Below are positions 16,825-22,894 of a stretch of 32,000 nucleotides of DNA, piece by piece. The position numbers and the translations under genes are program-made. Source of the DNA: Pirellula staleyi DSM 6068 (GTDB lineage: Bacteria; Planctomycetota; Planctomycetia; Pirellulales; Pirellulaceae); assembly GCA_000025185.1 (NCBI GenBank), contig CP001848.1:3960001-3992000 (forward strand). The letters run 5' to 3'. The notes beneath the pieces were generated by a model, which made no database searches, was not told the DNA's origin, and saw only the letters and a program-made list of their open reading frames with translations. Within the stretch, counting starts at the first letter, position 1; each line of letters begins with the position of its first letter.

Positions 16825-18306
16825 CTAATCGTGGGGATGCGCCTTTGGGGCTGGGAGATGAGCCGTCGTGGGGGCGAGCCACTGTTTCCACGGTTCGAAA
16901 GCATGTGGTGTCGAGAGGATGCCACGATCTTTGAGTAGGTCTTCCGCGGCGTGATGGCGCGAAGCGATGTTGAGCTGGGGTACGACACCACCGGCAAACA
17001 GCAGAATCACGAGGGTGAGGAGCGCGATTTTCTCGCGCAGTCCCATCCGGAGCGAAATGCTGGAGATATGCCGAGTGCCGGTGAAGAGTACAAAGTAGAC
17101 TTGCAGCACCGCGATGCCACACAAGGCGGTGGCAATCACCATGGCGATGCCAACGAGTGGATAGGTTCCCACAGCTCCATCGATCAATAGTTCGGAACCG
17201 ACATAGCCCATCGTTCCTGGAAAGCCCACGCTGGCGACGCCGGTGAGCAAGAAGCAGACCGCAAGCAGCGGCATCTGTTCGTAGAGGCCAAGGTAGTTCG
17301 TGAGTTGCAGACGACCAAAGCGAGCTTCCACGGCACGCATGGCGAGGCCAAAACCGGTGAGCGAAAGACTCACGGAGATCCAGGTGCAGAGTGCGCCGGT
17401 GAGTCCTTGGACATTCGCCATTTCGAGCCCCACAAGAATCATGGCCGAGTGACTCATGAACAGGAAGCTGAACATGCGTCGTCCTTCCACCTGCACCAGT
17501 GCCATGCCTGCTGCATAGACGGCAGTGAAGAGGGAAAGGAGTCCCATTCCTTGCATCACTTCAGTGGGAGCGATCGGAACGACGAGTCGCACTGCTGCAT
17601 AGACGCCGGTGAGAGGGGTCATGAAGAGAATCGCACTTCCGAACGACGACTTATCGAAAAAGTCGGGGACCCAGCTATGGAACGGAAAGATTCCGCTTCG
17701 AATGAGGACTGCGAGGAGGAGCGGGATGATGGAATAGAGCGAGTGGCTGTGCGCGGTTGGTCCCCCTTCGGCCATGGCGACGCTCCAGCCGACAATCATG
17801 AAAACGACGAACAGCGTCATGTAGCACATGTACATGCCCGTCGCGCGACCGCGAGTCCAGAGTTCAAAGAAGGGGGGGAGTGTAGCGAGAGTCAGGAGTG
17901 AAATGAGAAGCCACGGTGTTTTGCATGAGAAGGTGGCGAGGAGGATCGATTCGGTGATGAGTGTCCAGAAGAACGAGAAACGACGCCCCTTCGAGCGAAC
18001 TGTAGCGACGGTGGTGAGGGCGAAGAGCATCGCTGCCAGCGGCAAGAGGGGGGCACTGATCTCGTCGAGCTGGAGTAGCTCGTGACCAGTGAGTCGCGAG
18101 AGGAGATGAAAGCGATCTTGGGCTTCGCTCGCCCGCATCCAGATGAAGTCGAGCCAAGTGCAGGTGGCAAGGACAAAGGTGATGATCGAGAACGTAACCC
18201 CGTAGATGCGTGCATCGGTGGGCTCACGAAAACGAGCGACAACCAGTGCGCCGAGCAGAGGAACGAGCACACATAGCTCTAGCCAGGGAAGATGTAGTTC
18301 GGTCAT
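16825..18306 (-). CDS. NuoM/NuoN (MrpD)-like proton-conducting membrane subunit, divergent; third gene of the DAB-like operon
   Basis: 493 aa, polytopic. Family motifs are degenerate: LIRSGIFPFHSWVPDFFDKSSFGSAILF (consensus ..K.P..P.H.WLPDAH.EAPT.GS), FLFMSHSAMILVGL, FPGTMGYVGSELL. Its ATG overlaps the stop of the upstream NuoL-like gene (ATGA). Confidence 0.8.
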   Translation of the reverse strand: MTELHLPWLELCVLVPLLGALVVARFREPTDARIYGVTFSIITFVLATCTWLDFIWMRASEAQDRFHLLSRLTGHELLQLDEISAPLLPLAAMLFALTTVATVRSKGRRFSFFWTLITESILLATFSCKTPWLLISLLTLATLPPFFELWTRGRATGMYMCYMTLFVVFMIVGWSVAMAEGGPTAHSHSLYSIIPLLLAVLIRSGIFPFHSWVPDFFDKSSFGSAILFMTPLTGVYAAVRLVVPIAPTEVMQGMGLLSLFTAVYAAGMALVQVEGRRMFSFLFMSHSAMILVGLEMANVQGLTGALCTWISVSLSLTGFGLAMRAVEARFGRLQLTNYLGLYEQMPLLAVCFLLTGVASVGFPGTMGYVGSELLIDGAVGTYPLVGIAMVIATALCGIAVLQVYFVLFTGTRHISSISLRMGLREKIALLTLVILLFAGGVVPQLNIASRHHAAEDLLKDRGILSTPHAFEPWKQWLAPTTAHLPAPKAHPHD

Positions 18307-19754
18307 CGCGACTTCTCCAGCTGTGGCTCGTTCATTAGTGGCTCGGCAGGTGTCGTTTCCGCACTTGTCACGCTGGCATGATCGACCATATTTTCTTTTT
18401 CGTCGCTGCCGAAAAACGTCGTCCAGCGGCGCTCGAGTCGATCACAAAACCGAAGCGTATCGAGGAACGGGTTCACAAACAGCGTGATGAGCCAACTGTC
18501 GAGATAGCCCTTCTCGATCGCGAGTCGATACATCCACACGCGTGCTGAAACGGGTAGCCACCAGATGCTGGCCGGGGATTGGCGAGCGAGTCGACTTCCC
18601 AGCGCGTTTTCGAGCGTGCCGTAGTCGTAAAGCAGTGATGGCGCACGGATGAATTGCAAGGTGCGAAAGCAGGCGTGACCAAGGATGTGGACGAGAGCGA
18701 CATAACGCAGGGGCTGCCAAAAATAGCCCAGGCCAATGGTGGCAACGATCAGTCCGACTTGGGTGAGGGAGGCAAATGATAGTGCCGATTTGATGTCGGT
18801 TTGTACGCGGCCTGCAAACGAAGCAAAGGCAGCGGTGATGAGTCCAATCGCCAGCACCGCGAGTGAGAGTGTCAGCGAGGCATCGAGCAGTGGGCTGATG
18901 CGTAGTAGTAGAAATGCGCCGAGGTGGACCGACAGCGCGCCGTAGAACACAGCGCTCGATGGTGTCGGCCCTTCCATCGCACGTGGTAGCCACCCCGAGA
19001 AGGGAACGAGCGCGCTTTTTCCAGCAGCTGCAATCAGCAGCATCGCGCCGACGATCAGCAGACTTTGCGTCGGTAGATCGACATGACCTGCGGGCCACGA
19101 AACAGCACCGGTAGCACCCAGCAGATCTTGAAAGTCGCCATGCCCATGCAGGTGATGCATGAGGACCGAAGCAATGAGGAGTGCTGCATCGGAGATGCGA
19201 TAGACGCACCACACGCGCAAGCCATTCCGCACAGGCGCGGCACGTTCGTGAAAGAATCCCACGAGCAAAGCGGATGAGATACCGACAAGTTCCCACCCGG
19301 TAAAGAGTGTTTCAATCGTGCCGGCCAGTGATGCCACGATCATGCCGAGCATGAAGAGCGAGTAGAGGAAGAAGAATCGGTTGTAGCCTGGTTCGCGATG
19401 CATGTAGCGCGAAGCAAAACCACCAATCACACCGCAGAGCACAAATGTAAGAATCGCAAACGGCACCGACAGACGATCGAAGACGAATTTTACATCGAAG
19501 TGGAACTCCGAGACTTCGACCCACTGACCGACGTAGACTTCAACGTTGCGTGGTCCCCAACTGAGCATCAGGATCAGAACGCCGAGTGATGCTACGAGTC
19601 CGACAACGGTGCAGATTTGGCAGAGGAGGTTCGTAGCGCGTTCGGAAAGAGGTGAACTGGCGAGGGTCATCACGCCCATGACCACCACCATCAGCAGCGG
19701 TGCGGCGACCACGATCATGCCCAGCGCGGTGAAGATGTTTTCGTCAGTAAACAT
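18303..19754 (-). CDS. dabB: NuoL/ND5-like proton-conducting membrane subunit, probable DabB
   Basis: 483 aa. Motifs: TGWELVGISSALLVGF, AAAGKSALVPFSGWLPRAMEGPTPSSAV, TDIKSALSFASLTQVG, HILGHACFRTLQF. No long C-terminal amphipathic helix. Starts 23 nt after the dabA stop. Confidence 0.8.
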   Translation of the reverse strand: MFTDENIFTALGMIVVAAPLLMVVVMGVMTLASSPLSERATNLLCQICTVVGLVASLGVLILMLSWGPRNVEVYVGQWVEVSEFHFDVKFVFDRLSVPFAILTFVLCGVIGGFASRYMHREPGYNRFFFLYSLFMLGMIVASLAGTIETLFTGWELVGISSALLVGFFHERAAPVRNGLRVWCVYRISDAALLIASVLMHHLHGHGDFQDLLGATGAVSWPAGHVDLPTQSLLIVGAMLLIAAAGKSALVPFSGWLPRAMEGPTPSSAVFYGALSVHLGAFLLLRISPLLDASLTLSLAVLAIGLITAAFASFAGRVQTDIKSALSFASLTQVGLIVATIGLGYFWQPLRYVALVHILGHACFRTLQFIRAPSLLYDYGTLENALGSRLARQSPASIWWLPVSARVWMYRLAIEKGYLDSWLITLFVNPFLDTLRFCDRLERRWTTFFGSDEKENMVDHASVTSAETTPAEPLMNEPQLEKSR

Positions 19755-22700: not shown

Positions 22701-22894
22701 CCCTCTTTAAGTCCTTCCTCAAACGGCAGATCTTCTAATGCTTGTAAGGCATTCAAAAACACAAAAGCAGAAATCGGACCTTGAGGAGGTAGGAGGTCTC
22801 CAATGGCGATGATTTGTCGCCGCAGTTCTTCCAGCTCAGGAGGAAGCGACCCCGCGTCGGCGACGTGCTTGTCTGCTGTTGCCGTGGATGACAT
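19778..22894 (-). CDS. dabA: DabA / DUF2309-family protein (beta-carbonic-anhydrase-like subunit of a DAB inorganic-carbon pump)
   Basis: 1038 aa. Motifs: [67 protein letters not shown]. Putative Zn ligands are Cys515 (21350-21352), Asp517 (21344-21346), His703 (20786-20788) and Cys718 (20741-20743). Confidence 0.85.
   Translation of the reverse strand: [1038 protein letters not shown]

Follow-up and report, generated by a model that had tools for sequence, protein, structure and literature searches.

We examined a window of 32,000 nucleotides (nt) from Pirellula staleyi DSM 6068 (Planctomycetota, Pirellulales; contig CP001848.1, positions 3,960,001 to 3,992,000), in which three consecutive genes on the minus strand encode a DabA protein of the DAB family and two membrane proteins resembling antiporter-like subunits of complex I. 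The first gene, dabA (19778..22894), encodes a predicted cytoplasmic, beta-carbonic anhydrase (beta-CA)-like subunit of 1038 amino acids (aa). Its TAG stop codon (19780-19778) is separated by a 23-nt spacer (19755..19777, read directly) from the ATG at 19754 of a second gene (18303..19754), whose NuoL-like product of 483 aa we refer to as L, the putative DabB equivalent. The stop codon of this gene is in turn embedded in an ATGA stop/start overlap (18303..18306, from the open reading frame coordinates) with the third gene (16825..18306), which encodes a NuoM-like protein of 493 aa, here called M, the proposed full-length equivalent of DabC. The same 4-nt overlap is present in many relatives, consistent with translational coupling. 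The three proteins are 100% identical to ADB17741-ADB17743, with DabA corresponding to ADB17743, and both membrane genes currently carry annotations as complex I subunits. An initial annotation made from the sequence alone had described the trio in much these terms, as a DabA-type reading frame with a Cys-x-Asp...His-x14-Cys pattern, a NuoL-like gene 23 nt downstream and a second antiporter-like gene entered through the ATGA overlap, all three forming one DAB-type unit of CA-like and antiporter-like subunits. That description has held up well, except that L corresponds only to the TM1-TM11 part of NuoL (TM, transmembrane segment), followed by a hydrophilic tail.

P. staleyi DabA matches PF10070 over essentially the whole profile (positions 4-746 of 747, E 3.4e-238) and aligns to the solved DabA2 of Halothiobacillus neapolitanus (PDB 9rd0_A, E 1e-67). 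The carbonic anhydrase site is intact. Residues C515, D517, H703 and C718, the latter two in a His-x14-Cys arrangement, coincide with the zinc-site motifs of 9rd0_A; the C515-I-D517-A-R519 codons (21338..21352, minus strand), a CxDxR beta-CA zinc and dyad motif, align to CIDVR of DabA2, and the H703...C718 codons (20741..20788, minus strand), which specify the second zinc-ligand pair, align to GHGS...DCGAC. C515, D517, R519, H703 and C718 are invariant among 37 diverse relatives, and the four zinc ligands are also invariant in a second set of 45 relatives. The length of the protein, which the initial annotation had considered unusual, is ordinary for a long-form DabA: H. neapolitanus DabA1 has 1046 aa and, among 1985 representative clusters matching at E<=1e-30, most of the best 150 are of 940-1060 aa. 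An AlphaFold2 model of DabA has a mean predicted local distance difference test (pLDDT) score of 77, and Foldseek gave no significant match for it in a PDB fold library extending to 2026-04-08 and not containing 9rd0.

The P. staleyi protein belongs to a DabA clade of its own that, judged by profile scores, is about equidistant from DabA1 and the DAB2-type DabAs, with a hidden Markov model (HMM) of the clade scoring DabA1 at 585 bits and two DAB2-type DabAs at 603 and 538 bits. A clade-specific insertion at residues ~105-260 (22115..22582, minus strand) is unmatched in DabA1 and DAB2-type DabA, neither of which has a match to clade HMM positions ~103-240. The model shows the insertion as helices; pLDDT is 70-93 for most of its 10-residue blocks and drops to 65-70 near residues 171-190. 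Comparison with the clade HMM also shows that segment 596-685 of DabA1, its flexible arm, has no counterpart in the P. staleyi-type DabAs. A hydrophobic helix-loop-helix hairpin is predicted at residues 580-645 (20960..21157, minus strand), with a hydropathy peak at 612-630 and modelled helices at 580-604, 607-617, 623-630 and 632-645, and is the likely counterpart of the membrane-inserting finger/elbow of DabA2 and DabA1; the pLDDT of this prediction is low, falling below 50 for residues 614-627. In DAB2, the periplasmic half-channel is built from TM12-13 of DabB2 and Glu444 of the DabA2 finger, an essential residue that stands in for K399/D400 of NuoL (PMC13144422). Glu444 aligns to A615 of P. 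staleyi DabA, and an alignment of the clade with the DabA2 finger region revealed no conserved acidic residue in the hairpin.

L carries both PF00662 and PF00361, is matched by NuoL models at positions 5-351 of 615 only, and scores 219 bits against the NuoL equivalog model, below its cut-off of 556 bits. Within the matched part, E144, R175, D178, K229, D303, H334, H338 and K342 of E. coli NuoL correspond to E155, R186, D189, K246, D320, H356, H360 and R364 of L, the last with Arg in place of Lys. All 46 L family members share E155, R186, D189, K246, D320, H356 and R364; H360 is found in 45 of them and is Asn in the remaining one. The NuoL-type first (cytoplasmic) half-channel, made up of TM4-8 and the TM11 His/His/Arg residues, is thus intact. 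After the TM11 histidines there are no hydrophobic segments at all, as against four in three DabBs and five in E. coli NuoL, and TM12-15/16 are replaced by a conserved hydrophilic C-terminal tail (residues ~366-483; 18306..18659, minus strand), such that the protein is shorter than DabB1 (~560 aa). Also missing are the distal helices and the long lateral helix by which NuoL-type subunits are clamped into larger arms. The TM5 Glu that L retains in 46/46 members is replaced by Phe in DabB1 of Nitrobacter hamburgensis, by Ser in a Nocardia DabB and by Ile151 in H. neapolitanus DabB2, in which putting Glu back at this position halves activity (PMC13144422).

M matches PF00361 (E 2.5e-22) and, from end to end, the NCBIfam NuoM model TIGR01972 (positions 1-484 of 486, E 1e-41); the M family scores highest on NuoM, although at 143 bits M is below the 263.8-bit cut-off of the model. 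Its AlphaFold2 model is of good quality (pLDDT 82, predicted template modelling score 0.83) and in Foldseek superposes over its full length on NuoM, ND4 and NdhD chains with template modelling (TM) scores of ~0.8; as modelled, M is a complete 14-helix NuoM fold. Position 372, in TM12, is acidic in 50 of 50 family members (Glu in 45 and Asp in five), the TM7 lysine of NuoM is replaced by Arg in all 50, and R203, E327, R329 and E425 are invariant. The two halves of the protein are unequally conserved, with a mean column conservation (commonest-residue frequency) of 0.69 for the C-terminal half and 0.51 for residues 1-200, and with 27 of 28 near-invariant positions in the C-terminal half.

The better conserved half of M is also the part that is homologous to DabC. 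When a DabC profile built from 19 homologues was compared with the M family using hhalign, DabC columns 15-246 matched M residues ~206-441 (TM7b/8 to TM14; 16984..17691, minus strand) at a probability of 88-92% (E 6e-7 to 3e-6), whereas control comparisons of DabC with the N-terminal half of M and with the L family gave probabilities of <=0.5%. The relationship is visible to profile-profile comparison only, and pairwise BLASTP of N. hamburgensis DabC against M returned nothing (E 2.9). DabC has Leu opposite E372 of M, and members of its family are 241-270 aa long with, in all cases but one, no Pfam match. In complex I, the part of NuoM equivalent to this DabC-homologous half faces NuoL, and on these profile comparisons M is best described as a full-length homologue of DabC. 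A metagenome-assembled genome labelled Candidatus Kuenenia stuttgartiensis seemed to hold a half-size M (a 249-aa reading frame at locus L079) that could be an intermediate towards DabC; we rejected this candidate, as the gene (L079:9010-10452) is a frameshifted full-length M gene split over two reading frames, with the N-terminal half in the other frame.

The trio is a conserved unit. A DabA-centred scan in which each GTDB species was represented by a single genome gave at least 595 confirmed matches, of which the best 80 were inspected; dabA, L and M are contiguous and in this order in 65 of the 69 informative loci, 11 of the 80 being cut by contig ends. The exceptions are one locus with all three genes rearranged (L059) and three with dabA only, one of which is a frameshifted pseudogene. 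The hosts are mostly Planctomycetota of several orders, together with Verrucomicrobiota, Acidobacteriota and two Sorangium genomes, and the trio is also found in metagenome-assembled genomes labelled Bdellovibrionales, Alphaproteobacteria and Spirochaetaceae. A similar picture emerged when metagenome contigs were scanned with M as the centre: among 80 loci, 29 of them cut by contig ends, the three genes are contiguous in 47 of about 50 that are informative, and L accompanies M wherever this can be checked, barring one borderline locus with ~600 nt of upstream sequence. Conservation of the third gene beside dabA, on which the initial annotation had staked its proposal, is therefore borne out. 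The flanking genes vary between species, and since the same gene order recurs in different species with different flanks, the trio is not a chance adjacency. No trio was present in a plasmid collection, where, apart from the N. hamburgensis DAB1 locus, all DAB loci were of the two-gene DAB2 type.

Although the flanks vary, inorganic-carbon genes are recurrent among them. In about a third of the genome loci the trio is adjoined on the same strand by a gene encoding a fusion of a SulP permease (PF00916) to a beta-CA (PF00484), ~660-715 aa in length, which is present at 24-27 of the 80 genome loci and 17 of the 80 metagenome loci (L021, L022, L028, L039 at 35-2179, L046, L047, L054, L061, L062 and others); it is not present in the P. 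staleyi window. At L003 and L004 there is instead a SulP-type permease gene, the product of which has precomputed Pfam matches to PF00916 and to PF00543 (P-II), and L079 has a candidate SulP-type permease neighbour. These fusions and permeases support an inorganic-carbon role for the trio. OmpR-type two-component genes are also frequent beside it in other genomes.

A different association is seen in one metagenomic planctomycete lineage at L003 (3456-17473; L004 is the same), where the M gene overlaps by 8 nt a same-strand, six-gene Hyf/Ehr-like module composed of HyfB-, HyfC-, HyfE-, HyfF-, NuoC+D- and NuoI+B-like genes, followed by the SulP-type gene with P-II matches, ten genes in all. The NuoD-like subunit has none of the CxxC motifs that bind nickel, which makes the module an Ehr-like one and not a true hydrogenase. 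The trio has Ehr-like genes beside it at L042 (881-3283) and L056 (11919-19021) as well, and fragments are found at L016, L035 and L059. The L003/L004 arrangement could represent a redox-linked CO2-hydration supercomplex, parallel to the cyanobacterial NDH-1MS, an idea that does not apply to the stand-alone operon of P. staleyi.

In P. staleyi itself the trio, which has metE on one side and a two-component system on the other, seems to be an operon in its own right, bounded upstream by a metE hairpin and non-coding DNA and downstream by a convergent regulator gene. The ~370 nt of non-coding DNA ahead of dabA, the presumed 5' untranslated and promoter region (22895..23260, minus strand), lies downstream of the terminator-like hairpin and T-run (~23261-23298) in which metE (23374-25665, minus strand) ends; scans of the operon surroundings with Rfam and for promoters and terminators identified no Rfam element and no convincing sigma-70 consensus site in this 5' region. 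On the other side, genes for a PAS histidine kinase and a LuxR-type response regulator overlap by 4 nt (13876-16799, plus strand), the regulator gene converging on the M gene with the two stop codons 25 nt apart. As the P. staleyi neighbour is of the PAS kinase/LuxR type and those elsewhere are of the OmpR type, no regulatory inference is justified. No further nuo genes are present within the window. Among the other features, metE, the B12-independent methionine synthase gene, is preceded by a cobalamin riboswitch (RF00174, 81 bits; 25786-25969, minus strand) in the classical arrangement; a chemotaxis cluster at 6338-13462 (minus strand) includes cheR, cheB, a gene for a PAS-containing methyl-accepting chemotaxis protein and cheA/cheW, and the PAS kinase and regulator genes come next; an 1851-aa LamG/RTX-repeat/PATR protein is encoded at 94-5649 (plus strand), where long antisense reading frames are probably spurious; and a DUF1559 protein with an N-terminal methylation motif, of a family that is a hallmark of Planctomycetota, is encoded at 29374-30426 (minus strand).

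How does the trio relate to known systems? The initial annotation had supposed that a DabA is paired with a single PF00361 partner. That is correct if only Pfam labels are considered, but it overlooks DAB1, and the trio is not the first DAB with three subunits. The DAB1 of H. neapolitanus is a three-gene cluster (Hneap_0907-0909) for DabA1, DabB1 (559 aa) and a small membrane protein encoded between them (bioRxiv 10.1101/476713; PMC13144422), and a 2026 cryo-electron microscopy structure of DAB1 from Thermocrinis albus is a DabA/DabB/DabC heterotrimer in which DabC aligns structurally with the NuoM helices adjoining NuoL (bioRxiv 10.64898/2026.05.01.722082), a placement with which the profile match of DabC to M agrees. 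Although hydrophobic residues occupy the NuoM proton positions in DabC, the subunit is essential; its role is reported to be structural rather than catalytic (bioRxiv 10.64898/2026.05.01.722082). We identified a further DAB1 locus on plasmid 1 of N. hamburgensis (L086; NC_007959.1, 266897-282744), with genes for DabB (565 aa), DabC (253 aa), DabA (1037 aa) and a P-II protein and with carboxysome genes adjoining. Two DabA1 genes are present in the plasmid region, and the P-II genes that follow them are identical; the complete dabB-dabC-dabA-P-II set lies beside a LysR regulator gene, form I Rubisco genes and the carboxysome genes.

Like these DAB1 systems, which belong to chemoautotrophs, the P. 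staleyi trio has three subunits and a DabA of ~1040 aa with the same zinc ligands; its NuoL-like protein has the TM7 Lys and the TM11 His/His/(Lys or Arg) residues, and its third subunit is a homologue of the C-terminal, NuoL-proximal half of NuoM. The differences are nonetheless substantial. M has 493 aa, PF00361 and a predicted 14-helix fold with an acidic TM12 residue, as compared with ~250 aa, no Pfam match and Leu in DabC; L is ~80 aa shorter than DabB1, without TM12-15 and with the TM5 Glu that is Phe in DabB1; DabA is without the DabA1 arm and is distinguished by the insertion at ~105-260; the genes are ordered A-L-M rather than B-C-A or A-C-B; and the hosts are mostly heterotrophic Planctomycetota, whereas those of DAB1 are carboxysome-bearing autotrophs. 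With DAB2/MpsAB (PDB 9rd0) the trio has in common the PF10070 protein and its NuoL-like PF00361 partner, the deeply conserved zinc site, the DabA hairpin (membrane-inserting in DAB2, predicted in P. staleyi) and an occurrence in heterotrophs. DAB2, however, has no third subunit, its DabA2 is of 827-870 aa, and it combines a DabB2 of 15 TMs with the finger Glu, where the trio has neither TM12-15 nor that Glu and retains the TM5 Glu.

Outside the DAB family, both membrane subunits have their best sequence and fold matches in NuoL and NuoM of complex I, with L keeping the TM5 Glu/Arg/Asp/Lys ion pairs and M the TM12 acidic residue, but L is truncated after TM11, M has Arg for the TM7 Lys, the scores are far under the equivalog cut-offs and there are no adjacent nuo genes. 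A likeness to the cyanobacterial ndhF3-ndhD3-cupA module (NdhF3-NdhD3-CupA-CupS of NDH-1MS; PDB 6tjv) had also been proposed, and is apt as regards the gene logic of an L-type and an M-type antiporter-like subunit with a soluble, zinc-dependent CO2-hydrating subunit; M superposes on NdhD3 (TM score 0.79) as well as on NuoM. It does not extend to the proteins themselves, as DabA (PF10070) has no relationship to CupA, the score of L on TIGR01960 (ndhF3_CO2) is 106.6 bits where the cut-off is 588.7 bits, neither L nor M is an orthologue of its cyanobacterial counterpart, and the cyanobacterial module belongs to a redox-driven NDH-1 complex, unlike the stand-alone operon of P. staleyi. A specific affinity of M for NdhD3 was considered and rejected, because 6tjv_D ties with ordinary NuoM chains in both score (67.8 and 67.1 bits) and superposition (TM scores of 0.79 and 0.82). 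Since M is a full-length homologue of DabC, the trio is a relative of DAB1 and not, as had been suggested, a bridge between DABs and the cyanobacterial system.

The trio is a distinct and widespread DAB architecture, and is best read as a third and more complex-I-like one, in which a truncated DabB-like L and a full-length DabC-like M accompany a DabA clade of their own. Our preferred interpretation, to which we assign a probability of roughly 0.7, is that the three proteins would together make up a single DAB-family membrane complex that acts as an energy-coupled ('vectorial') carbonic anhydrase and supplies bicarbonate in a heterotroph. CO2 diffusing into the cell would be hydrated to bicarbonate by the complex, driven by inward proton flow. 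DabA would be the zinc-dependent, beta-CA-like catalytic subunit, L the DabB equivalent providing the NuoL-type cytoplasmic half-channel, and M would be placed against L as NuoM is against NuoL.

In complex I, the chain of charged residues runs from TM5 through TM7 and TM8 to TM12 within each subunit and then to TM5 of the next. The TM12 Glu of M and the TM5 Glu of L are kept together, such that the NuoM/NuoL junction appears to be reproduced. Because L lacks TM12-15 and DabA lacks the finger Glu, both of which build the half-channel in DAB2, periplasm-side entry is most likely to be via M. In the most economical scheme, the second helix bundle of M (TM12, E372) would take up protons on the periplasmic side and pass them laterally to E155 and K246 of L, as happens where NuoM meets NuoL; they would then run along H356, H360 and R364 of L towards DabA, where they would gate the buried carbonic anhydrase site. 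We regard this M-to-L route as tentative, its chances being perhaps a little short of even.

P. staleyi is an aerobic heterotroph, and nothing in the content of the window suggests autotrophy. The bicarbonate produced would feed bicarbonate-dependent carboxylases, and by analogy with DAB/MpsAB systems, which provide bicarbonate for carboxylations in heterotrophs (PMC6689103), this is the likely role in P. staleyi; the heterotrophic function put forward in the initial annotation is plausible for a planctomycete.

Several observations weigh against an energy-coupled complex with a proton-conducting M. M lacks both the TM5 Glu and the TM8 Lys of NuoM, and its E372 falls one residue off E407 of E. 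coli NuoM in gap-free alignments, so that the equivalence of the two is assumed. The L family scores E. coli NuoL (188 bits) higher than DabB1 (150 bits) and the DAB2-type DabBs (104-108 bits), and the orthology of L to DabB is therefore drawn mainly from context. There are pairs of L and M genes with no adjacent dabA (L001:6616-9440, L105:6499-9431 and L151:~3574-5738), although only two or three such pairs are clear in the M-centred metagenome scan; in these, either dabA is encoded elsewhere or L and M have a different partner. The pair at L001 has flagellar export genes on one side and a sulfatase gene on the other. The trio also adjoins an Ehr/Hyf-like module in ~5% of the 160 loci, such that L and M may serve other partners. 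Finally, M could be purely structural, given that DabC of DAB1 has neither hydrophilic pathway residues nor a water chain.

This last point is the core of the main alternative, namely that the complex is of the DAB1 type, with M an inert scaffold or allosteric subunit like DabC and protons passing through L and the DabA hairpin alone. The homology of M to DabC, the missing TM5 Glu and TM8 Lys, and the reported structural role of DabC with its hydrophobic substitutions (bioRxiv 10.64898/2026.05.01.722082) are all in keeping with it. We nonetheless consider it unlikely, as an inert M would not be expected to have a TM12 residue that is always acidic, an invariant TM7 Arg, or a full N-terminal half under purifying selection at a mean column conservation of 0.51; moreover, L alone keeps the TM5 Glu that faces NuoM in complex I and, with neither TM12-13 in L nor a finger Glu in DabA, another provider of the periplasmic half-channel is needed (PMC13144422). 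A broader evolutionary reading, in which the trio represents an ancestral, complex-I-like DAB state with a composite channel (second bundle of M with its TM12 Glu, first bundle of the truncated L with its TM5 Glu) that drives the buried carbonic anhydrase site, DAB1 (half-size, inert DabC) and DAB2 (no third subunit, finger Glu and DabB TM12-13) are successive simplifications, and some lineages have become wired into an Ehr/Hyf-like redox complex, is, taken jointly, rather doubtful.

It is also conceivable that DabA, L and M form a peripheral CO2-hydration module on an Ehr/Hyf-like complex or on complex I, driven by electron transfer in the manner of CupA-NdhD3-NdhF3. The 8-nt overlap with which the trio at L003/L004 runs into Hyf/Ehr-like genes on one strand, the Ehr-like genes or fragments at the other loci named above, and the existence of L and M pairs without dabA speak for such docking. 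It is, however, quite improbable as a general account, with the adjacency being so infrequent, the P. staleyi operon standing alone between metE and the two-component system, L lacking the helices that would clamp it into a larger arm, and known DABs running on proton motive force alone (bioRxiv 10.1101/476713). We give almost no weight to the idea that the complex is chiefly a cation (Na+/H+) translocator or a pH-homeostasis device to which CO2 hydration is secondary. MpsAB was originally reported as a Na+-linked system that generates membrane potential (PMC6689103), and L and M do match Mrp antiporter models weakly, but these scores are far below those with the NuoL and NuoM models, the zinc site and CxDxR dyad are strictly conserved, the neighbours are the inorganic-carbon genes for SulP-beta-CA fusions and SulP-type permeases, and DAB2 shows no Na+ dependence (PMC13144422).

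Our literature searches turned up no description of a DabA system with a full-length NuoM-like subunit, and nothing on DUF2309 in Planctomycetota or on a link between DabA and hydrogenase-like complexes. DAB structures were solved only in 2026, and a widespread variant allows the coupling between proton flow and one-way CO2 hydration to be studied by natural comparison, offering a full NuoM-like third subunit with charged residues at the L/M junction together with a DabB that lacks the half-channel helices of DAB2. It is thus of interest for both vectorial carbonic anhydrases and complex-I-type proton channels, and it bears on the origin of DabC. The form wired to Ehr/Hyf-like genes would, if the redox-coupled reading holds, be a non-cyanobacterial redox-coupled CO2-hydration machine parallel to NDH-1MS. 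There are consequences for annotation too, in that the two membrane genes of the trio now carry complex I subunit labels. More broadly, genes for a predicted energised CO2-capture device, often beside a SulP-carbonic anhydrase fusion, occur in many Planctomycetota that are heterotrophic as well as in some Verrucomicrobiota, Acidobacteriota and Myxococcota, which may be relevant to anaplerotic 'dark' carbon fixation in these organisms.

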